Source: Chiloscyllium plagiosum
Lineage: Eukaryota
Length of the DNA stretch: 31,966 nucleotides
Reading direction: 5' to 3'
Assembly: GCF_004010195.1 (NCBI RefSeq)
Contig: NC_057717.1
Coordinates: 104,784,937-104,816,902 of the forward strand
The translations under genes were made by a program, and so were the position numbers. The notes beneath the pieces were generated by a model. That model searched no databases, was not told the origin of the DNA, and worked only from the letters and a program-made list of their open reading frames with translations. Positions 1,941 through 18,435 of this stretch are shown here, one piece after another (the stretch's first letter is position 1; each line of letters opens with the position of its first letter).

Positions 1941-2081
1941 TCTGGCCAGCCCTCTCCAGTTGACACAGTGAAGAGAGTCAGTAGAGCCCAGAGCACATTA
2001 TCGTAATGGAACTCATATCGTTTCCACTCCCGCTTCTGTGCCTTAATATCGCTTTCCTTCATGTAGACCAAGTATTGTCCT
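1941..2081 (-). CDS. CACNA1B: Cav2 calcium channel alpha-1 exon, repeat III extracellular loop and pore helix (141 nt, phase 2 to 2)
   Basis: tttcccttttctgtttcag|A GGA CAA...TGG CCA GA|gtatgt; translates [47 protein letters not shown], including the repeat III selectivity-filter Glu (TGEGW). Confidence 0.95.
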
Positions 2082-2189
2082 CTGAAACAGAAAAGGGAAA
2101 AGAAAATTAAAACATAGATTTGTATTTGTATATCTCCTTAAAAATCTCAGAAAAAAATTCAAAGCATTTCAAAAACAAAAATTACTTTG

Positions 2190-2293
2190 GAATGCCGTTA
2201 GCAATGTTACATAGGTTAATGCCACGCAGCACCAGATACCTGGTTTCAATTCCACTTTTGGGCCACTGTCTATGTGGAGTTTATACATTCTCT
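2190..2293 (+). mobile_element. Old, truncated HE1-like SINE head
   Basis: cacgcagcaccagatacctggtttcaattcc...ctgtctatgtggagtttatacattctc aligns by eye to the 5' part of the SINE at 11077. Confidence 0.55.
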
Positions 2294-2839
2294 CAAACAC
2301 TACACTAATTTCTAAGCTTAGATTTGGGTTTAAGTCTGGAATATAGGATAGTCACACAACCTTCTGAGTCAGACAAGTGTGCACCAACTGAGCCAAGCTG
2401 ACCTCAGATAAAAGTACTTGCAAAACTTCATTTATCTCCTCCCGGTTGTGTGAAACTTTCCTTCCTGTCTTCTCCAATTGTCTTCAGGCAGTCATGCAAA
2501 GGCAAATTACTGCAGATGTTGAAGATGTGAAATAATATAACTTGCTAAAAATGTTCAGTATGCAATAGCAGCATCCAAATAGGGGGTGCATTAAATGGTG
2601 GAATATTTCCACATTTTGAGTGACAATGGTGAGAAACTTGTGAAATTATAGTGAGAATGAAAACGTTCAGATTCCCAAAGGAGAAAACAAATTGAATTTT
2701 CCACTTAAGGTTCAAGTGGGGTGTTCTGATTCTCACTAATGAGCTGCAACACTTTATTTTTATTAATTTGTGTTTCCTCATTTGCCCTCCTTCATCAAGA
2801 AACTAGAAGACACTAACTGCTGATATGCAAGTTAGAGAA

Positions 2840-3510
2840 ATTACCTGATGCCATAGCTCACCACTTGATTCTCTGGACCTTCATCTAGCTCCACCATCAC
2901 CACTACTTCCCTGTATGCTCTGTGGACACTGTGATCTTTTATCCTTCCTCCATCCAAGGGACATCACCAAATCACTAGTATCGCCATATCATCATCATGG
3001 TTGATCTCACAACAACTCACATACCTCTTCAGCCTTTCAGGACATCACTTTGGAGCTCAGTGACAATTATGCCTTGCATGCTTCTGCCAGGTTGCTTTGT
3101 GCACATGGACATGCACACCTTATGTATCAATACAGGACGCATCTAATGATTATTAGCTTACCTTCTTCGCACTCACTACCTTTGCACTGACTTGGATGCT
3201 TTCAGATTCTCTGGCTTGCATTGATTTTTTTGTACACAGGCTCCTCAGCCATGACTAACAGGTTGCCAGCCTTTCTGGCTAGCATTGCTGTTTAACAGAA
3301 GCAGGGACACGTAGTTTGTCATGTTTCAGAACACTGAACAGTCAATGAGGAATATGATGATGGACAGGGGTGGAGGTAGGGTGCAGGTGGGGTGCGATGG
3401 TGGAGGGGTTGGAAGGGTTGAAGAATTATCACTACTCTCAGGCAGAGCCTACAGCTCATGAGGATGCAAACTCAAAATCTTGCTATGTTTGTACCCAACT
3501 TACCTGTACA
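2840..3510 (-). mobile_element. Possible relic of a Harbinger Myb/SANT-like accessory gene
   Basis: Minus-strand fragment INASQRI*KHPSQCK..SAKK directly followed by gtaag, plus other donor-like sites; heavily decayed, weak resemblance. Confidence 0.3.
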
Positions 3511-3637
3511 ATTACAAGACAAAAACACATTTTTACATCTAATTCTATGCATGCAATTATATCATCTGAGATGTTCAAGGGTGACTTTTGTTTTGCAAGA
3601 GGGTACTGTTACAAGACAAGTGTGACACCACTTAACT

Positions 3638-4049
3638 CGGCAAAAGCAGGAACAGGATCCCGTGGTGACGGCAATAGCAGGAATAGTGTCCCGTGGTGAT
3701 GGCAATAGCAGGAACTGGGTCCTGTGGTGACGGCAATAGCAGGAACTGGGTCCTGTGGTGACGGCAATAGCAGGAGCAAGGTCCCGTGGTGGCGGCAAAA
3801 GCAGGAACAGGGTCGCGTGGTGATGGCGGCAATAGCAGGAACAGGGTCCCGTAGCAGTGGCAATAGTAGGAACAGGGTCCCCGTAATGGCAGCAATAGCA
3901 AGAAGAGGGTTCCCGTGATGGCAGCAATAGCAGGAACAGGGTTCCCGTGATGGTAGCAATAGCAGGAAGAAGGTTCCCGTGGTGGTGGCAGTAGCAGGAT
4001 CAGGGTTCTAATGGTGGCAGCAATAGCAGGAGAGGGTTCCCGTGGTGAC
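3638..4049. repeat. GC-rich minisatellite, about 13 units of 30-34 bp
   Basis: Consensus GGCAATAGCAGGAACAGGGTCCCGTGGTGAC in tandem; explains the overlapping ORFs at 3370-3959. Confidence 0.95.
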
Positions 4050-4143
4050 CCAGTTCCTGCCTCTGCTGCCAGCCCAGTCTGCCTGCTCTTGCTGTGCTTT
4101 TATTTAAAATTAATAAGGTTTTTATGGGACCTTGCGCTCTTGT

Positions 4144-4849: not shown

Positions 4850-5302
4850 GAGTTGGCCTTCATAGCCTTCTATGAATTCCAGAGATTCACTACCCTCTGA
4901 ATGAAGAACTTTCTCTCCATCTCAGCCTGCAGTGGTCTACATGTACCCTGAGACTGCGAGTAACCCCTTGTTTGAATCACCCCCATGCCCCAGCCAGTGG
5001 AAACATCACTTTTGTACACAGTCTGTCTAGCTCTGTCAAGATTTTTAACATTTCAATGTGATCCCTCTCTTTCTTCTAAACTCCAGTCACATGTGATCCA
5101 ATCTCTCCTCAAATGATCAACCTCGTCAAGGGCAACTAGGGACCGGCAATGAATGCTGGCCTGCCAGCAATGCACACCTCCCAAAAATTATTAATTTTTT
5201 TTTAAAAAACTGTGACCATAGGATTCAATCTGATTGGCCTTCACTGCCCTTCCTCTGCGGCAAATATATATTTTCTTCAATAAGGAGATCAAAACTGCAG
5301 AT
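4850..5302 (-). mobile_element. CR1-like LINE, 3' part, interrupted by the Gypsy element
   Basis: gaattccagagattcactaccctctgaatgaagaac...; aaaactgcag at 5291-5300 continues as acacaaaattccaggtatggtctc at 9236. Confidence 0.7.
5127..5195 (+). mobile_element. Short SINE/LINE 3' tail (SacSINE1/DeuSINE-like)
   Basis: caagggcaactagggaccggcaatgaatgctggcctgccagcaatgc; a related inverted copy lies at about 14640-14712. Confidence 0.5.
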
Positions 5303-5519
5303 TGTATGATTGAAACAAGGTCAGCCAGATGGAGCTCAGAATATAAGATCCCTAATTGGGGATGTTAATCTGGTTCAATCAGGGAGCTCTGGCTGACGGG
5401 TAAGAACAGGAGTATCAGGGATTCTGTTCACTCTGAGGGAGCTGGATCAGTCATTGAATCTGCATATGTAAATAAAGGATGACTTGGTGACAGGAAACTA
5501 GCTCGGTGCTGTTATTTCA
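5303..5519 (+). repeat. 5' LTR
   Basis: tgtatgattgaaacaaggtcagccagatgg...gttatttca; similar to 8244-8358 plus 9104-9234. Confidence 0.85.
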
Positions 5520-5605
5520 GTGATGACAAGAAAACAGCATGAGCAAGAAGAAATTTCACTCACAACAGTCATCTTTGAGCTGGGGTGAGCATTTCTAGCA
5601 TCATT

Positions 5606-5920
5606 ATTTGATTAGATTAGATTACTTACAGTGTGGAAACAGGCCCTTCAGCCCAACAAGTCCACACCGACCCGCCAAAGCGCAACCCACCCAGACCCAT
5701 TCCCCTACATTTACCCCTTCATCTAACACTATGGGCAATTTATCATGGCCAATTCACCCTAACCTGCATATTTTTGGGTTGTGGGAGGAAACCGGAGCAC
5801 CCGGAGGAAACTCACGCAGACACGGGGAGAATGTGCAAACTCCACACAGTCAGTCACCTGAGGCGGGAATTGAACCCGGGTCTCTTGCGTTGTGAGGCAG
5901 CAGTGCTAACCACTGTGCCA
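5606..5920 (-). mobile_element. HE1-type tRNA-derived SINE, full length
   Basis: Minus-strand A box TGGCACAGTGG, B box GGTTCAATTCC, central tgtgtggagtttgcacattctcccc domain and (TCTAA)n tail. Confidence 0.92.
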
Positions 5921-7499
5921 ATGAGCCACTGTGCCATTGTTAATCAATGAGCTTAACTCATTCAATCCTGCTGTTGAAGACTGGGCTGAGTATGTGGAAA
6001 GAATGCATTATTTTTTCGGGCGAATGATATTGCAGTTGATGAAAAATAACAAGTAATTCTCCTAACAACTTTTAGACCCACAGCTTTTTCAGTTACTAGG
6101 AGCCTAACTTTCCCTGAGGCACTAGATACTAAAATCTTTCAAAAGTTGATGGATTTACTCAGCAATTTGAGAACCAGAGAAATCTGTATCGGAATTTTTG
6201 ATGAGGTTTAAGCAACTGGCAGAGGCATCTGACTTTGGTTTAACCCTTAATGAAATGCTGGGAAAATGTTTCATAATGGGATTAATAACGTAACCATGCA
6301 GTAGTGCCTACTAGTTGAATCCCAATTGGACTTCAAACAGGCACTAAACTGACTTTATCAGAACAAAATGTGGCAATTGGAACATATGATTTACAAATAT
6401 TCCAATGGAAGTGGACACCCTCACCAGCCCAAATGAGCTTGGGAGACACTATTTGAATTGCATAGCCTCGTTCAAGACATATCCTGAAAACAGATCATAC
6501 AACAGCAAAACCCAAAACAAAGCCAAGCCTTGACCAAACGGTGAAAATGTTTTTCAGTATCCGGGCCAGCAAGCCATTGTAGTTGCTGCCAGTATATGGA
6601 CACGAGACAGCAAAGGAGACCCACTAGACCTGAATTGTGGAAGAGAACTCAAAAGCCTGCATCTTGGAGAGTGCACACTCTGGAAAGTCCACCTACGTTT
6701 AGTTTGGAGCAGGTAAATTGCTTAGGAACATCCAGATCAGAATAATCAAATAATCAAAATCAATCAAAATAAACCTCTGGTTAAATGGTCACCTGGTTCT
6801 AATGGAGATCGATACCCACACACCCATTCCAGTGATCGCACAACTGGTCTTTAACAAAATTCACTCTGGACTCCAATCCTTACATTTGCATAAAACCTTG
6901 GCCAGACTGAGAACCTATACCAGTAGACCTTTACAAATTAAGGGTATAACTTTGGTTCTGGTCTCTTACAAGAAGCAGCTGGTTCAGTTACCATTGATTG
7001 TAGTAAAGGGCTCAAGCCCAAGCTTGATGGGATGAAATTGATTGAGAAAGATTCACCTAGATTGGCTCAACATCTTTTGATTCAAAATTAGTTGCCTGAG
7101 TGAAGTTTTCATTAAATACCCAGACGTTTTTCAGGAATATAAAGGGACTATCAAAGGAGCCAAGGCCACCTTGCATGTTGGCCAGGAAGCAATTCCATGA
7201 TTCTGCAAGACCTGCCCAGTGCCTTTTGCCTTATGAGCAAAAGTAGAGGCAAAAATCAGAAGACCCGAAAGCGAAGGAATCATTAAACCAGCCCAGTTTG
7301 TGGAACGTGCAGCACTGATTGTATCAATTGTGAAGCCCAATGAGTCAGTTTGCCTTTGTGGGCATTTTAAACAAATGGTAAACCACTTTGCCAGCTGGAT
7401 AAATACCCAATCCCTTGCAGGGAGGAATTATATGCAAAGCTGATGGGGTAGCTGTTCTTTATGAAGCTGACATGAGACATGCCTTCATGCAATTTCAGT

Positions 7500-7852
7500 T
7501 ATAGAATCCATACAGTGTAAAAACAGGCCCTTCTGCCCAACGAGTTCACACCAATCTTCTGAAGAGTAATTCACCCAGACCCATTCCTCTACCCTATTAC
7601 TCTATATTTACCCCTGACCAATGAACCTAACTTACACATCCCTGAACACTATGGGCAATTTAGCATGACAAATCCACTTAACCTGTATATCTTTGGACTG
7701 TGGGAGGAAACCAGAGCACCCGGAGGAAACCCACGCAAGCACAAGGAGAATGTGCAAACTCCACACAGACAGCTGATTCCCTGAGGCTGGAATTGAACCT
7801 GGGTCCCTGGTGCTGTGAGGCAGCAGTGCTAACATCTGAGCCACTATGCCAT
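7500..7852 (-). mobile_element. HE1-type SINE inserted in the Gypsy RT
   Basis: Same head, core and tail as 5606-5920; Gypsy RT sequence resumes after it, with an imperfect duplication ttcagtta/tccaatta. Confidence 0.9.
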
Positions 7853-8358
7853 TCCAATTAGATGAGAATTCCCAGAAGTATGCTATATTTAATACCCATA
7901 TGTACCAATATATGAGACAGCCTGTTGGGGTATCATCAGCCTGTGCAGTTTTTCAGTTGATGATGGAGAATAGCACACATGGGATCTTCCTCTCTGTCAT
8001 GCATTGAAGATACCTCAGAATGCGAGATGGTCTCAGAGGGTGTTGCCACCTCGCACCTTTGCCGCCTGAAGAGGAGAATGAATTTCTTCCAAGACACTCT
8101 CAGCGCAAGAGGCAAGCTGTGCGTCACATACCACTTATATCAGAGGCAGAGTTGGAGGAATCTGACCCAATGCTAAAAGGTCCCAGGAGGAGATACAAAA
8201 AAAAAGGAACTGGCCTACGTCCTCATACTCAGAGTGGGAGGAATGTAGTGATTGCAACAAGTTCAGCTAGATGGAACTCATAGAATACGAGTTTCCTGAT
8301 TGGGGCTGTTAACTTGTCCTATCAGGGAGGCCTTAATTACAGATAGGAACAGGAGTGT

Positions 8359-8783
8359 TTGGGGTCGTTAGGGCCAACTGCCTGCCCCTCTTCCGCGGTT
8401 ATGTTAGAGCCCGGGTGTCCTTGGAGAAGGAGCACGCGGTGTCCACCAACACCCTGGAGTTGTTCAGGGAGAGGTGGGTGCCACAGGGAGTGGAGTGCAT
8501 CATTTCCCCCTCCAACTCTATTTTGATTTAATCCCTGCCCTCCCCTTCACTGTTTGATCACACAGCATTGCCCTTTGATGTGAAGGGCACTGCTTGTCAC
8601 TGGCCACTCGGGTGTTTCTTTTCTTCCTGGTGGTGGAAACTGAATAAAGATTTGTGCACCTTGTGTCTTTCACTGTGTCTCACATCTGCACACACACAAC
8701 ATGGGTGCTGGGGAATTAATAAGGACTACCGCAGTTATGCGGTAGTGTGGGGGTAATTAAAAATAAGAAAAATAAAAAAAATA
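8359..8783 (+). mobile_element. 5'-truncated Tx1/L1-clade non-LTR retrotransposon 3' end
   Basis: Open frame 8361-8531 GVVRANCLPLFRGYVRARVSLEKEHAVSTNTLELFRERWVPQGVECIISPSNSILI*, then 3' UTR and A-rich tail; flanked by aacaggagtgt/aacaggaatgt. Confidence 0.8.
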
Positions 8784-8853
8784 AACAGGAATGTCAGAGC
8801 TTCTGTTCACTAAAAAATAAGAAAAAAAAGAAACTAAAAGGAACAGGAGTGTC

Positions 8854-9103
8854 TTTGATTTAATCCCTGCCCCTTCCCTTCACTTCTTGATCACGCAGCA
8901 TTGCCCTCTGAGAAGGGCACTGCTTGTCACTGGCCACTCAGGTGTTTCCTTTCTTCCTGGTGGTGGAATATAAATAACAATTTACACACCTGTTGTTTTT
9001 CACTGTGTCCATCACCTGCACACACATGACATGGGTGCTGGGGTAAAATAAGCACTACTGCTGTCAGGCGGTAGTGTGAGGGAAAATAAAAAAGAAACAT
9101 AAG
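8854..9103 (+). mobile_element. Second, shorter Tx1-like 3' end
   Basis: Diverged copy of 8522-8783 (tttgatttaatccctgccc...gcggtagtgtg plus A tail), flanked by aacaggagtgtc on both sides. Confidence 0.8.
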
Positions 9104-9234
9104 AACAGGAGTGTCAGACATCCTGGTCATTCTGAGAGCTCGCTCTTTGGGAGCTGAATCAGTGTCAAGGACTGTCTAAGTATAAAGAAAGGGAGACTTG
9201 GAGACAGGATACAGGCCTCTGCGGAGTTATTTCA

Positions 9235-9860
9235 GACACAAAATTCCAGGTATGGTCTCAACAAGATCCTATATATTTGCAGTAAAATTTCCTTGCTCAT
9301 GTACTCAAATCATCTTGTAGTGAAAGCCACCATACGATTACCTTCCTAACTGCTTGCAGCACCTGCATGCTTCCTTTCAGTGACCAGTGTACGGGACACC
9401 AAGATCCCTTTATACATCAACATTTCCTAAGCTGTTTCCATTTAAATAATACTCTGCCGTCCTGCATCGCTGTCCAAACTTCACAGTTATCCATGTTATA
9501 CTGCATTTGCCCATTCACTCAATTCACCCAGATGACTCTTTAATTCTCATCACTTACAATACCATCTAATTTTGTATCACCAATATACTTGGAAACATAA
9601 CATTTGATTCCTTCACCCAAATTGTTGGTACATATTGTAAGTAGCTGGGGTTCAAGCCCTAAATCCTGTGTCCAACCCCATTGTCACTGTGTTCCACTCT
9701 GAAAACGACTTCACTTATTCCTATTTTTCTTTCCAAAACCTCAGTCCATACCAATATGCTGCCACTAATTCCACTGGCTTTGATTTTGGACATTAATCTC
9801 TAAAGTTGAATTTGACCAGAGGCTTTCTGAAAATCCAAATTTGTAATATTCTGTGGTTCT
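9235..9860 (-). mobile_element. CR1-like LINE, continuation (decayed RT region)
   Basis: Continues the LINE broken at 5302; resembles the LINE at 11390-13260 in the same orientation. Confidence 0.7.
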
Positions 9861-10444: not shown

Positions 10445-11076
10445 TAGGCTGTGTCATCTGTGCTCGGAAGGAATTCCTGTGCTTATCAAGATCACAGCTG
10501 TCCTTAAGATTTACGCCAGCAGTCTGTTCCAAGGAGCTAATGGGGACTTGTGTGGAATTTCCCAATCCTTGGCCCACAAATGCATCTGGAAAGTACAGAT
10601 GCCATTTTCTGCAGATTACATCAGTTCATTTCCTTCCCATTTGATAAGAACAGTCAATCATCTTGGACAGTGGGTTTCTCCCTTATCGCTGCCTCCCTGC
10701 AGGTGCAGGTACTTTAGACTGAATACACATTGCTATGACAGTGTCTATCAACAGCCTGCCAATTTCATCCAAGTCCAGCTCATCTGTGACCATCAATGCC
10801 AGATCCTGGGAGCTGCTATGATGCATATGTAATGGAGAACTTTCAGATTTCTGTGTCCTTCCATGGTTCTCGGGATGGCTGCTGGGAGACAAGAGGGTAC
10901 CCCCTCCATACATGGCTGATAACACATTTACAAAATCATCAGGCTGTCAGAGATACAATGCTGCCTATGTTTCCACTGGGGCCATAGTGGAACAGATCAG
11001 AGGCCCCCCTTCTATTTGGTTTCTATGCCTGGACCACTTTGGCAGGGCCTTACAATATAACCCAGAAAGATTGTGT
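10445..11076 (+). mobile_element. Decayed PIF/Harbinger transposase (HARBI1-like) fragment
   Basis: ITAVLKIYASSLFQGANGDLCGISQSLAHKCI, QVQLICDH, GWLLGDK, QRYNAAYVSTGAIVEQ and FLCLDHFGRALQYNPERLC occur in Harbinger DDE motif order across frameshifts. Confidence 0.8.
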
Positions 11077-11386
11077 GGGCGGCATGGTGGCACAGTGGTT
11101 AGCACTGCTGCCTCACAGCGCCAGAGACCCGGGTTCAATTCCCGCCTCAGGCGACTGACTGTGTGGAGTTTGCACGTTCTCCCCGTGTCTGCATGGGTTT
11201 CCTCTGGGTGCTCCGGTTTCCTCCCACAGTCCAAAGATGTGCAGGTCAGGTAAATTGGCCATGCTAAATTGCCCGTAGTGTTAGGTAAGGGGTAAATGTA
11301 GGGGTATGGGTGGGTTGCGCTTCGGCGGGGCGGTGTGGACTTGTTGGGCTGAAGAGCCTGTTTCCACACTGTAATGTGATCTAATC
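11077..11386 (+). mobile_element. HE1-type SINE, full length, relatively young
   Basis: A box 11088-11098, B box 11132-11142, many CpGs retained, LINE-derived tail. Confidence 0.93.
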
Positions 11387-11389
11387 ACT

Positions 11390-14143
11390 GTGATAAAAGT
11401 ACAGCACAGGAACCGGCCCTTCAGCCCACAATATTGGGACCAACATAATGCCAAATGAAATTAATCCTACCTGCGTGCTTTTGGTCCATATCCCTCCATT
11501 CTTTGCATATTCATGTGCTTATTTAAAAATCTCTTAAATACCTGTATCATATCAACCTCCACTATTATCCCGGCATTTCAGACTCCTACCATTCTGTGTA
11601 AAAAATGTCTCCTTTGAACTTTCCCCATCTCAAGATTCTGATCATCAACCTTATCTATGCACCTCATAATGTTATAGATTTCTATTAAGTCTCCCCTCAG
11701 CATCCACCACTCCAGAGAAAACAATCTGAGTTTTTCTAACTTCTCCTTTTAGCTCATTCCCTCTAATCCAGGCAGCATCCTGGTAAACCTCTTCTGCAGC
11801 TTTTCCAAAGCCTCCACGTCCTTTCTGTAATGTGGTGAGAGAATTTAATGCAATTCTCTAAGTGTGGCCTAACCAAAGTCTTATAAAGGTGCAATGTGAC
11901 AGCCTGACTCTTGTACTCAATTCCCTGACCAATAAAGGCAAGCATACGTTTTATTTACCACCCTATCTACTTACGTGGCCATGTTCAGGGAGCTATGACC
12001 TTGAACCCCAAGACCCTTCTGTACATCAGGGTCAGGGTCCTGCCATTAACTGTCCTCTTTTCCATGACATTTGATCTCTCAAAGTGCAGCACCTCACACT
12101 TGCCGGGATTAAACTCCATCTGCCAATTTTGCGCCCATATCTGCAACTGATATATATCCTGCTGTACCCTTTGATAACCTTCTACACTATCCACAACTCC
12201 ACTGATCTTTGTATTGTCTGCAAATGTACTATCTCACCCAGCTACTTTTTCATCTAAGTCATTTATATATATCACAAACAGTAGAGGTCCCAGCATGGAT
12301 CCCTGCGGAATGTCACTTGTCATGGATCTCCAGCCTGAAATATACCCTTCCACCACTACCCTCTGTTTTCTATGGGCAAGCCAATTCTGAATCCACGTGG
12401 CCAAGTCACCATGGATCCCATGCATCTTAATCTTTTGGATGAGTCTACCATGAGGGACCTTGTCGAAAGCCTTACTGAAATGCATTTAAACGACATCCAC
12501 TGGTCTATCCTCATTGATCAACTTTGTTGCCTCCTCGAAAAATTCAATCAATGAGTAAAACATGAACTGTCCTGCACAAAGCTATGCTGATTGTCCCTAA
12601 TTAGGCCATGCTTTTTCAAATGTGTGTAAATTCTATCCCTAAAAATTCTCTCCAATAGCTTCCCAAACACCGATGTGAGACTCACAGGTCTATAGTATCC
12701 CAGATTTTCCCTATTGCCCTTCTTGAACAGAGGAACAACATTGGCCACTCGCCAGTCCTGTAGGACCTCTCCATTAGCTAACGAAGATACAAAGATCTTT
12801 GTCAAGGACCCAGCAATTTCCTGTCTTACCTCTCTTAGTAAGCTGGGGTAGATACCTTTGGCCCCGGAAAGTTATCCGCCTTAATGCTCTTCAAGAGATC
12901 CAACACTGCTTCTTTCTAGATCTCAAAATGCCTTGAAGTGTTAGTGCTCCACACAAGTCTCACTATCCTTCATATTCTTCTCCTGGGTGATACTGATGCA
13001 AACTATTAATTTAGGATCTCACCCACATCCTCTGTCTCCAAGCACAAGTTCCCTCCTTTATCGCTGAGTGGTCCTACTTCTCCCAGTTATCCTCTTGTTT
13101 TTAATGTATCTACAGAATGCCTTGGAATTATCTTTCACCCTACTTGCCAAGATCATTTCATGGCCCATTCTAGCTCTCGTAATTCCCTATTTGAATTCTT
13201 TCCTGCTTTCTTTATATTCCTCACCTACCCTGTTCGATTTCAGCTTCCTAAACCTTACATATAGGTAGCTCTCCTGTAACATGGTGTGTGTTCCCATGCA
13301 ATGGCGTTGTATAGAAAATACAAGTAATAGCAATAGAAGTAAGAGGCCTCTGGGAAAAAGAGTTAGGGACTCTAGTTTAGCAAACCTGTCCATTTCTGGT
13401 CAGTCACAGAAATGCCAAGTTGTTACAAGCAAAATTTCCCAATGTATTATTGTATTCCCGGCTCCTTGTGCAGTGGAGTTTATCCAGAACCATTCCACAC
13501 CCAAACACCCTCTCTTGTAAAGTGCTGAAGCTGCAGATAGCCAGCAACTGAGCCTTTGCTTAACAAAAGGCCTTGCTTATGCTCCATTACTCGATGCACC
13601 TTTTTACACCCCCTATCTCCTTCTCTCTTCCTGCTCCTCAGCCCCCACCCCCCAACTCAATGCATGATCCCAGAAGGCATTCCAGCAAAATATTCCAACG
13701 TTCGTTTTCCCTACCTTAGTTGCAGATAGAAGCAAAGAAATATACACACATACACACGCGCGCGACACAACAGCCAGCTGGTAATACAGGTGATGGAATT
13801 GCATAACAGCGATTGGTCTGCAATTCACGAATTGCGTTACTGCCAAATCACGTTTACAAAATGCGCATTATAGGAGAACTATCTAAACGCTTCTTTTTTC
13901 TTTTGACTAAATTTAAAACCTCCCTGGTTATCCAAGAGTCCTTTCCCTTGCCATCCTTGACCTTCCTCCTCACTTGAACATGCCGGTCTTGAACTCTCAT
14001 CAACAGGTCTTTAAACAATTCCCATATGTCAAATGTGGACTTGCCTGATAACGACTCCTCCCAATTAACACTCCCTAGCTCCTGCCTAATACTGACATAA
14101 TTTGCCTTCCCCCAATTTAGTACCTTCCCACAAAGTCCAGCCA
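11390..14143 (-). mobile_element. CR1/HER1-like LINE ORF2 remnant
   Basis: [65 protein letters not shown] and LYKTLVRPHLE in order, with stops and frameshifts; 3' tail at about 11390-11430. Confidence 0.93.
13262..13885. mobile_element. Non-autonomous Tigger/TcMar-like DNA transposon inserted in the LINE
   Basis: Imperfect TIRs taggtagctctcctgtaac and attataggagaactatcta, preceded by TA; the LINE joins across it (ccttacata|..cgcttctttt). Confidence 0.7.
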
Positions 14144-14759
14144 ACTAAACTAACAAAGAGCAGAGTCCGTCATGGATTAACGGCGATGAATAGATATTTA
14201 ACAACCAGTAATCTTTCACAAAGCAAAAGGATTATGAAGAACACGTAAAGTAAGAACAAATCTTAATTTATATACATTTCAAAACATCAAGATGTTCCAA
14301 AACAATTCAAAGCCAACAAAGTATTTCTGAAATGATAACTGTAATGCAGGGAGATATGGCAACCAATTTGGACACAACAAAGTTTTAATCCATCTTTCAA
14401 TATTATCCAAGTCCAGGGAGCAAAAGTAATTCTTCCCCTGGCAAACCATTAAAAATGTAATTGCTTAAACAATTAAATTACTGGAAATTTTAATTCTTGC
14501 TACATGGTGGACTCTATTACATCTCTTATCACCCTCCAATACACATCAGCCTCTACTCAAGATGTGGAATGGCAAGTGACTGATCTGGAGGTTTCTCCAA
14601 CTTCCTGAAAGGTATAAAACAGCAGCTCAGAGGATGTTTTTATTTATTCACAGGGTACAGGTATTGCTAGTTAGGCCAGCATTTATTGCCCATCACTTGT
14701 AGCCCTTGAAAAATAAATCCTCTTCACATGTTTAATAGCTGTTGATCCTTCAATGTGTT

Positions 14760-14976
14760 CATGATTTGGAGATGCCGGTGTTTGACTGGGGTGTACAAAG
14801 TTAAAAATCACACAACACCAGGTTATAGTCCAACAGGTTTAATTGAAAGCACACTAGCTTTCGGAGCGCTGCTCCTTCATCAGGTGACCATCACCTGAAA
14901 GCTAGCGCTCCGAAAGCTAGTGTGCTTCTAATTAAACCTGTTGGACGATAACCTGGTGTTGTGTGATTTTTAACTT
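14760..14976. mobile_element. Palindromic Penelope-derived non-autonomous element
   Basis: Inverted arms 14798-14887 and 14891-14976; TSD cttcaatgtgtt (14748-14759) and cttcaaagtgtt (14974-14985). Confidence 0.85.
14852..14886 (-). ncRNA. Minimal hammerhead ribozyme, intact core
   Basis: CAC-CTGATGA-A-GGAGC AGC GCTCC-GAAAG-CTA-GTG: stem I CAC/GTG, 5-bp stem II, palindromic AGCT stem III, CUA cleavage triplet. Confidence 0.8.
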
Positions 14977-15045
14977 CAAAGTGTTGTTATTCAGGGTATA
15001 AGACACTGCACCCACTATTTTACAGCATGATATACTGGTGTTCTA

Positions 15046-15231
<186 letters not shown>

Positions 15232-15536
15232 CTAGATGGAAATAGTAATCAAATGAGAAAAAGTCACAACATTTGTCAAAACTGACAAGAATTAAACATC
15301 ATTATGTGTAACCATATTTTGTACAAGTTTAGCAAGATTTCCTATCAGCCTTTGTCTTTTTTACTTTTGAGATCTCACTAGAAGTACAAGTTTTCTCAAC
15401 ATGTTTATTATAAAATTTTACATGGCCATACAGTAGTTATTTCACATTCCTAACAATCCTGTAATGCTGTGTTTGTGTCCAAATAATGGAGGAAAGAAAT
15501 TGTGTACTGAAGACAGTCCAATTGAATTTGCATTAC

Positions 15537-15633
15537 CTTGAGCTTAGGCAGCCGTTTGATAGTTTTAAGGGGTCGTAGCACTCGAAGTACTCTCAGAGAT
15601 TTGATGGTGTTCAGATCTTTCCCTTTGCTCCCA
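15537..15633 (-). CDS. CACNA1B: Cav2 alpha-1 exon, IIIS3-S4 loop and IIIS4 voltage sensor (97 nt, phase 2 to 0)
   Basis: ttattgctag|T GGG AGC...CTC AAG|gtaatg; [38 protein letters not shown] fits CACNA1B rather than CACNA1A (GNSKGKD). Confidence 0.96.
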
Positions 15634-17019
15634 CTAGCAATAAAATAAAAAAAATCATAAAATAAGACAATACTAGATTGGAACTTTGGGTAAATATGGT
15701 TGTTTATGTACAACTGTTCCTTTCTTAAACATTTAAAAACTCACCTTATTTCAGGAACATTACCAAACAGGATCTCATATTTATTAGAGTAAATATAGTC
15801 ACCTCGAATGACGACCTCGGCAAACATATCAATTGTGCAACCTTTTCTCACTATTTTCAGGGTCAATTGTAATTTACAGTATTTTATCATTCTCTTTCTA
15901 TTATTTTAATTGTGTTTCAGTGCAAAAATGAACTGATCTAAGAAAAGCAGGCAGCTTTAGATGTTTAAGTTTATTGAAAGACAATGATAGTCTCCATCAA
16001 AAGTAAGCCATTGCGTGTCAGTTGGCGACATGCTGCAATCTTTCAATTAGTTAAAGCACTGCTAAACACATTTCTCAAACTACTCACAGAACAAAACCTG
16101 ACCACGATCATCAAATATCCTAAAATGTGAAAAAATGCAATAACTAAACCAGGATGGAAACATCTCATTCAACAACAGCAATAGTTTGTTTCATAAAGCT
16201 CCTGTGAAGCACATTGAACTGCTATCTAAGTATGAATAATTTTTGTTGTTATCTTATCCCAGTTAAGGGTACTGAATGTGTTTTGCAGTTATTTTCCATA
16301 CTACTGTAAATCATTATTTGTCACACAATACGTAATACTGAAAATTATGTTGGAATGTTTGTACGTGGAGGTAAAAGCCTTGACATTCCAATTATATTTC
16401 ACACCATAAAGCCAATAGTAAACATTTAGGAAATGGATTAGTCATTGGTACACACATTAATTACTGTGAATTATAAGTCCAGTTGTTCAATTGGGTATCT
16501 TGAATCTAAAAGGGTAGAAGATTCATGTCCTCCAAGAGTTTCTTTGTCAGTAATGTTAATTAAACCACAAAGAGAAAGTGAAACAATGTTTAAATACAAA
16601 CTCTGAAACAGAAAAATTGGAAGACTAAGCCCTTTCTTTTGCATCTTGCTGATCTAAATGAGGCATGTCAATACTAGGAAATGAAACAACAATTTAAAAC
16701 CTAATTAGTTTTATATTCATTAGTATGTCTCATCCCCAAGCTGAAAATAAGCCCCCTATTTTCCACAAGTGAGACATTTTTAATTTCTAGAACCAAATAT
16801 CCACTGGTCTTTTTAAGTGAACTTGTCAACTTACATCCAGTTCAGGCCACCACATTTTTCAGGTTCAAGAAATGACTCATTGTTTGAATTCTAATGTTTC
16901 ATTATAAGATAAAAATGAATGCAAAATGCCATAATGCTTTGCGTTAATGAACGTTTTCCTTTGTCTGATAGTGGGCATCAGTGGGCTCCACCCACAGGCT
17001 TGGGTTCTACCCTAAATGT

Positions 17020-17345
17020 CCTTGTATTGAGTGTATTGTTAAGGCTGTTTCAAAGGACAGTAAAGTGTTAGCCAATTTGCTGTAGGTCTGGAGTCAAATG
17101 TAGGGCAGATCAAGTAAAGACAACAGATTTCCATCCCAAAAGATCTTTTGTGAACTACATTGGTTTTTACAACAATTTATAGACTCATGATTACCATTAC
17201 TGAGACTAGCCTTCAATCTCAGATTTTATTTAAATTTAATGATGAATTTAATACTTAAAACTGAATTGAAATTCTTTCAGCTATGGTATTAACCTAGGCC
17301 TCTAGATACAAATCCAGTGACATTGCTACTTTACCGCCATCTTTC
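17020..17345 (-). mobile_element. Old SacSINE1/DeuSINE-like element
   Basis: gctgtaggtctggagtcaaatgtagg...ggtttttacaacaat...attactgagactagc...aatccagtgacattgctact; recognised by pattern only. Confidence 0.5.
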
Positions 17346-18435
17346 TTAGTCTCACACCCTCTAAATTGAGAAGGGACACCAGTGTGAATTTAATAGTAAT
17401 TTTATACAAACAACATGTGGGGGTACAGGGAAAAGGCAGAAGAACGGCACTAAGTTGTAACACTCATTGGATAGCAGTGCAGACACAATGGGCCGAACAA
17501 TCTCCTCCTGCACAAAATGCTGTGGTGATTCTTCTGTAATACATTTGATACCTATTTCTTGTGGGAAATTTTTCTGGACTTGAGTCATTCAGATTTTTAT
17601 GTAAATCAAGTACAGATACAGCCTGACCAATATTAACCATTAAACCATTAAACCTTCCTTCATTCATTCTTCTTAGGTCTAATTTGCTAAACATAGGGTT
17701 TCTACCAAATTGTGAGGTTCTTTTTAGCATAAATTTTATGTATTTCTATATATACACAATAATGTGTAACCCATAGCTGTGTACTGCTGAACTACTTGCA
17801 GCAAATTGACATTTTTGAAGACCTGGATATATCTAATCATCAGAAAGGTATTGTATTTCATGAACATAATTTCTCAAATTCAATTTCAGTGCTGAGGTAT
17901 TGAATCTCACCAACCTAAATTAACAGACCAAGTGACATTATTCAGCCCTAATGTCTGAATTCACATTTGTATTGTATTAAAACTGCACCTTATATCCAAA
18001 TGAAGATGTAGCTGGAGCCAGATTCTGCAAGGAGGTCCAATAGTGTGAGATGCTTTTAAAAAATATATTCATACATTTATGGAAAAAGGTTTTATTGTTG
18101 AGCCAATGCAAAATAGGTCAGCTCATCATTGAAAGTAAAATAAACTGGTCTATTTGTGCATAAAATATATTGTAGGCTACTCAGTTCAAAACTGGATATG
18201 TGGTCACTTTACTGTAGTTACATTATTTATGAAGTCAGCCTCAGCACTATCTGTTACAATGGCATACCCTGCACCAAGCAGAACTGCAACATAATCACTT
18301 ACCAAAAAGCACAGATATACATATATAAATAGATATAAAATTGAGAATGAGAGAAATATGAAGAGATATACAGAGAAGAATAGAACACAATGCAAATTTG
18401 CTGACTATTATAAAGAGAAAGAGCAGAAATATTAC

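Follow-up and report, generated by a model that had tools for sequence, protein, structure and literature searches.

Three A-tailed insertions are stacked at a single site in the 3' long terminal repeat (LTR) of a decayed Gypsy-like element of Chiloscyllium plagiosum. The element was studied in a window (the whole stretch of DNA analysed, 31,966 nucleotides; NC_057717.1, positions 104,784,937 to 104,816,902, forward strand), to whose first letter all coordinates refer. We consider it fairly likely that the stack arose by sequential target-primed insertions of an old and abundant Tx1-type family that prefers this LTR site. Directly visible are the empty 5' LTR, the A-rich tails, the two different 5' truncations, the target rebuilt on either side of each insert and the recurrence of the junction on other contigs.

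The host element has two LTRs with TG...CA ends (TGT opens both, at 5303 and 8244), a polypurine tract and a 4-bp target duplication (Table 1). Because AGAT flanks both outer ends, the two LTRs probably represent one old insertion; between 9236 and 9300, one of the seven CA dinucleotides is followed by AGAT. The LTRs are only 67-77% alike (K2P distance 0.29 for the left half), and neither the end of the 5' LTR nor a primer-binding site was located. Pol is largely deleted, and searches of Pfam, PDB and protein databases did not recognise the Gypsy-like interior. The retropepsin, which clusters with other retropepsins at a cosine of 0.96, is supported from the domain order protease-RT-RNase H-integrase; we presume an RT and gag likeness of the interior, RT-like text following the retropepsin. 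When the span from the first to the last target copy is cut out, the restored 3' LTR can be aligned to the empty 5' LTR (77% in the left part and 67% in the right). The same empty-site form, skipping from 8311-8312 to 9099-9104, was found in all four public runs that were aligned, with 63 reads in run X21.

Table 1 Features of the Gypsy-like element and of the insertions in its 3' LTR, with the basis for each call
Feature	Position	Strand	Basis
Decayed Gypsy-like element	5303-9263	+	sequence
Left 4-bp target duplication AGAT, probable	5299-5302	+	AGAT then TGT; CAACA then AGAT at 9263-9267
5' LTR, target site empty, 3' end uncertain	5303-5569	+	77% to 8244-8356, 67% to 9104-9235
Unoccupied target motif, 1 mismatch	5405-5416	+	motif scan
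Interior, Gypsy-like, decayed and internally deleted	5940-8230	+	many stops and frameshifts; retropepsin then RT-like start
Retropepsin	6754-7032	+	clustering with retropepsins
SINE-like repeat inside the interior	7502-7851	+	repeat comparison
Polypurine tract preceding the 3' LTR	8231-8243	+	sequence
Left part of the 3' LTR, up to and including target copy 1 (8346-8358)	8244-8358	+	alignment; empty-site joints from 8312 to 9099, 9100 or 9104
Piece A, Tx1-type with 5' truncation: 3' UTR preceded by the final ~56 codons of ORF2 (stop 8529-8531)	8361-8758	+	ORF, protein match
A-rich tail of piece A	8759-8783	+	sequence, alignment
28-bp target copy, LTR from the motif to initiator-like TCACT	8784-8811	+	24/28 to 5' LTR
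Bare A-rich tail, taken as an extremely truncated insertion	8812-8839	+	sequence, alignment
Target copy 3, 14 bp	8840-8853	+	motif scan, alignment
Piece B, Tx1-type with 5' truncation at the stop of ORF2	8854-9082	+	198/231 identical to A
A-rich tail of piece B	9083-9097	+	sequence, alignment
3' LTR, right part, beginning with target copy 4 (motif 9104-9115)	9099-9263	+	alignment
Right 4-bp target duplication AGAT, probable	9264-9267	+	sequence

The insertion site is marked by a 12-bp motif. A preliminary description of this DNA had placed it once in the 5' LTR and four times in the 3' LTR, and all five copies were recovered (5405-5416, and from 8348, 8784, 8842 and 9104); the four in the 3' LTR had been given as one 12-mer, which is exact only at 8842 and 9104; the copies at 5405, 8348 and 8784 carry one mismatch each. 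When up to two mismatches are allowed, the window contains eight matches against 2.6 expected, a number reached in none of 100 shuffles, and five of the eight fall in the two LTRs. The duplicated target exceeds the motif: a 5' extension (GG/TAAG) brings it to about 13-17 bp, and it reaches 28 bp in the middle block, which is 22/28 identical to the right-hand target copy. The order within the 3' LTR is LTR-left, target, A, tail, 28-bp target, bare tail, target, B, tail and LTR-right. Target copies stand on both sides of each insert, and the three tails, A-rich and impure, each abut a copy of the motif. The earlier account of three tails ending at motif copies, the third of them bare and following a longer LTR duplication, is accurate, and its picture of repeated insertion at a single position, with the target restored at every step, is supported.

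The loose ends before 9104 (64 contigs in run X5 and 74 in run X8) bring in a CCAAT box and close with a TATA-like run, which shares letters with the beginning of the motif. All three long copies have an initiator-like TCA at +26 relative to the motif, about 30 bp past the TATA-like box. By their likeness to consensus elements, we take these to be the putative core promoter of the LTR, a context absent from the preliminary description. ARAGORN gave no tRNA, and the only Rfam match (E 0.087) scored far under the gathering threshold, so that the target is not a small-RNA gene. A small inverted repeat around the motif was discarded as a structural signal, as it folds no better than shuffled sequences (z −0.1 to −0.8).

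Pieces A and B combine 5' truncation, an A-rich 3' tail and a target site duplication. A begins at about 8361 inside ORF2 and B at the equivalent of 8522, in agreement with the description of two diverged Tx1 3' ends with different truncations. A strong hairpin immediately before the tail ends both pieces (8725-8746 in A, z = −4.6; 9052-9077 in B, z = −5.5), and A carries an AATAAA at 8643. Upstream of 8361, 1610 reads extend with an agreement of 0.92, and A is therefore a truncated piece of a longer element. The Tx1-type identity proposed earlier found support in protein comparisons. The peptide encoded by A (P0001) is 44% identical over 55 amino acids (pairwise E 7e-11) to the C-terminus of P0027, an alligator protein of 1308 amino acids with Exo_endo_phos, RVT_1 and zf-RVT domains, and a profile of nine relatives retrieves P0029, "transposon TX1 uncharacterized 149 kDa protein", with an E-value of 1.6e-30. 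The direct match between P0001 and P0029 is weak (13/18, E 3e-4), and the closest named relatives of the A peptide are from Chiloscyllium punctatum and Rhincodon typus. Membership of the insert in the Tx1 clade is thus supported, as an assignment made from the C-terminus of ORF2 rather than from an RT tree. The APE endonuclease is absent from the truncated copies and from the window, as is the RT, and is present in the alligator relative P0027; protein searches from the A peptide retrieved no full-length shark ORF2. The Tx1 copies at this locus are old and dead.

Several observations made along the way concern the family or its annotation. In joints from 8681, 8690, 8692 and 8701, the A tail begins 40-60 bases past the AATAAA and ahead of the hairpin, and 3' ends of two kinds therefore occur in the Tx1 family. 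Tx1 ORF2 sequence is included in the NCBI gene models P0003, P0010, P0025 and P0027: a CutA isoform of the bamboo shark and a CCDC68 model of the whale shark carry an inserted Tx1 piece, and the alligator "rhombotin-1 isoform X1" (P0027) is a full APE-RT ORF2 that is probably mis-named. The whale-shark model P0010, in which RT-like text comes after a Tx1 piece, hints at a second case of Tx1 in Gypsy but was left aside, having no overlap with the Gypsy remains of the window. The top protein match, the repetitive mucin-like protein P0005, was rejected because its repeats had inflated a chance similarity. No related locus came up in pattern and protein scans of contigs from metagenomes, viruses and prokaryotes.

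For DNA outside the window, the four public runs (contigs of three organisms and raw reads of one) were aligned to 8200-9330 at 80% likeness, with 8753-8792, a stretch that takes in the tail of A, masked. The pieces displayed, 24 of 60,504, were the longest, which favours those that cross junctions. Two records of run X1, 7 (8909-9124) and 8 (8927-9121), pass from the Tx1 3' end through a tail into 18-21 letters of the motif. Each contains 28 other letters; both differ from B by 13% and are 7-8 letters shorter than it, whereas A is 10 letters longer; these lengths and differences rule out that they are copy A aligned onto B. The two records may represent both alleles of a single locus. In one X5 contig, LTR-left (8311) is followed by Tx1 from 8407, which is another truncation point, and in one X8 contig LTR-right (9140) is connected to Tx1 at 8688 by letters that tentatively resemble a short A run and a degenerate motif.

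With a genome of 3-5 Gb assumed, a same-strand insertion within 3 bp of the motif would occur by chance 0.025-0.042 times per genome, or 0.18-0.30 times if only 2% of genomic sites are usable. A Tx1 insertion anywhere in the LTR would occur by chance 1.2-2 times per genome, and the X5 and X8 junctions are therefore weak when taken alone. Enrichment at the LTR site is well above chance. Among the three displayed pieces that reach the end of the B hairpin, two run into the motif and one does not. Record 16 of X5 ends at 9078 with 145 unlike letters beyond, and in one X5 contig a tail after 8692 is followed by non-motif sequence. No link between the Tx1 3' end and the LTR motif was present among the 15 joints listed of 604. 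Behind 8715, 545 reads have loose ends (agreement 0.52) that resemble the hairpin of the element itself out of register; they were set aside as uninformative on flanks. The proposal that the family targets this LTR is borne out in one respect, the junction of tail and motif recurring on two other contigs of one run, but has to accommodate at least two displayed copies with other flanks. Specificity of the whole Tx1 family for this LTR is probable.

The depth of the reads argues against the site preference. Tx1 is covered at about 7000 and the LTR at 1100-1290, giving an LTR/Tx1 ratio of 0.16-0.18 (Tx1 being 5-6 times deeper). These depths suggest about 11,000-18,000 insert copies and 2,000-3,300 LTR copies, again with 3-5 Gb assumed and with under-counting at 80% likeness. 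The argument loses some of its force, though not all, through stacking and through the under-counting of diverged LTRs. The stack might also be the work of a promiscuous, L1-like family nicking T-to-A-rich junctions, the TATA box being the best such site in the LTR; since each new tail and duplicated target makes another site, a hot spot could arise without dedicated LTR targeting. The family is very abundant, some displayed copies are flanked otherwise, and a single X1 contig passes from a Tx1 tail (8690) into Tx1's own ORF2 sequence (8361). The word at this joint has AAACAGG in common with the LTR motif, and the contig could be a self-insertion at a look-alike target. At the site itself a T precedes a run of purines, which resembles the L1 consensus 5'-TTTT/AA-3' (PMC1950540). 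However, even with 2% of genomic sites usable, 0.18-0.30 insertions per genome are expected at the motif, compared with the present locus and one or two more among few displayed rows, and the inserts restore the same motif and never lie inside tails. We judge promiscuous nicking to be an unlikely origin of the stack, though one that deserves to be kept in mind.

The divergence between A and B (198/231 identical, or 86%; K2P 0.16), noted in the preliminary description, is by itself no proof of independent insertion, because the target copies are about equally diverged (22/28; Fisher p = 0.40). More informative are the 19 sites at which A or B departs from other copies, which comprise all displayed variant rows in the region shared by A and B (40 of 787 rows were displayed). 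The partner carries the letter of the other copies at 15 of them; two show a shared odd letter, one a third letter and one a gap, and the two odd letters common to A and B are carried by 31-42% of reads at those positions. On the evidence of these letters, a recent origin of the two pieces by local tandem duplication is excluded; the preliminary description had named local tandem duplication, with no age given, as an outcome that would refute its reading.

An older history, in which one insertion was followed by old local duplications (by slippage or template switching) that gave the middle block, the bare tail and B, is a good deal harder to credit than not, and we think it quite improbable. 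The divergence of A and B is no greater than that among the target copies, and a 14-letter stretch is common to the bare tail and the tail of A, as such a history would have it. A simple tandem copy, however, would join the 28-bp block directly to B, and two more template switches are needed for the extra tail and the 14-bp target. Private letters shared by A and B are nearly absent (2/19), and any duplication would therefore be about as old as the insertion. Nor does duplication explain the junctions on other contigs. Different 5' ends at the one site mark independent insertions (8361, the equivalent of 8522, the bare tail, and about 8407 on one X5 contig). It is very improbable that a Tx1 piece inserted once in an active LTR and was then spread by the LTR element. 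Such spread would account for Tx1-motif junctions on other contigs without targeting. Reverse transcription of an LTR element, however, places this stretch of the LTR at either end, whereas here the 5' LTR lacks an insert although both LTRs appear, from the AGAT duplication, to be one insertion; the truncation points also differ (8361 and 8522 here, about 8407 in X5).

Under the favoured reading of sequential insertion at a preferred site, the LTR element would have integrated first, and three Tx1-type insertions by target-primed reverse transcription would have come afterwards. An APE endonuclease would nick the bottom strand directly past the TATA-like box of the LTR, reverse transcription would begin at the A tail after the 3' hairpin, and a second cut 13-28 bp downstream would duplicate the target, which may then serve as a fresh target. 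In a workable order, the bare tail, with its 28-bp duplication, would precede B, and A would enter the first target copy.

Comparable systems are described in three papers. Tx1 is one of three main target-specific groups (PMC4640811), and two crocodilian families that target LTRs, Tx1-8_Crp and Tx1-4_AMi, have been published (PMC4494074), which the preliminary description does not mention. The shark locus works like these families, and the principle is already in print; the hosts differ, crocodilian there and shark here, and the likeness is drawn from the description of those families. Tx1-Mar LINEs and SINEU-3 in Mariner-N4_AMi also target another transposon, with tandem inserts that sandwich a target duplication of about 16 bp, comparable to that of the shark locus; the tandem SINEU-3 insertions were explained as sequential insertion (PMC4494074). 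Their target is a DNA transposon in contrast to an LTR, and the specificity of SINEU-3 was counted (313/347); a family is called target-specific when the target is present in more than 20% of flanks (PMC4494074). Tx1L of Xenopus laevis is likewise an APE-type Tx1 found at one site of another transposon, Tx1D (PMC1950540, PMC4494074). Its endonuclease specificity was shown in vitro and is contrasted with the promiscuous L1 enzyme (PMC1950540); its target is a DNA transposon. Among the papers that our literature searches listed, none describes a shark Tx1 family that targets LTRs.

The LTR element lies antisense within an intron of a Cav2 calcium-channel gene (N- or P/Q-type alpha-1), whose exons are on the minus strand at 1961-2089, 15539-15631 and about 15745-15870 (best E 3e-16, to N-type alpha-1B). 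No effect of the insertions on this host gene is indicated. Other repeats are present in the window. A minisatellite at 3607-4077 consists of about 14 units of 31-32 bp, the terminal unit being inverted. A SINE-like repeat of about 300 bp, which we assume to resemble shark HE1 SINEs, occurs in three copies that are 79-95% alike by segment (5618-5928, 7502-7851 and 11081-11374), two within the LTR element and one outside and inverted. The segment 25788-27370 is an element of about 1.6 kb, possibly Penelope-like. Its terminal segments are long and inverted (146 and 215 nt, 84-86% complementary), and a 50-bp copy of the end lies inside it. A near-perfect inverted repeat of 73 bp with a loop of 33 nt lies at 14798-14976, where Rfam gives a weak, below-threshold match to mir-1251.

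The position of the site suggests a stronger claim, namely that the LTR core promoter, between TATA box and initiator, is the specific target of a shark Tx1 lineage, that promoter piracy drives this choice, and that three or more shark species have it in common. We offer this as a tentative idea and doubt that it is correct. If it is, a duplication of 13-17 bp would make a full-length copy start about 10 bases before the presumed transcription start of the LTR, and Tx1 would be transcribed from the captured LTR promoter, with the host element severed from its promoter. The LTR-promoter position provides a testable reason for target choice. Should specificity hold across the family, the shark locus would add a cartilaginous-fish case to the Tx1 families that land safely in other transposons, and would provide a new natural target for studying how the specificity of the APE endonuclease changes.
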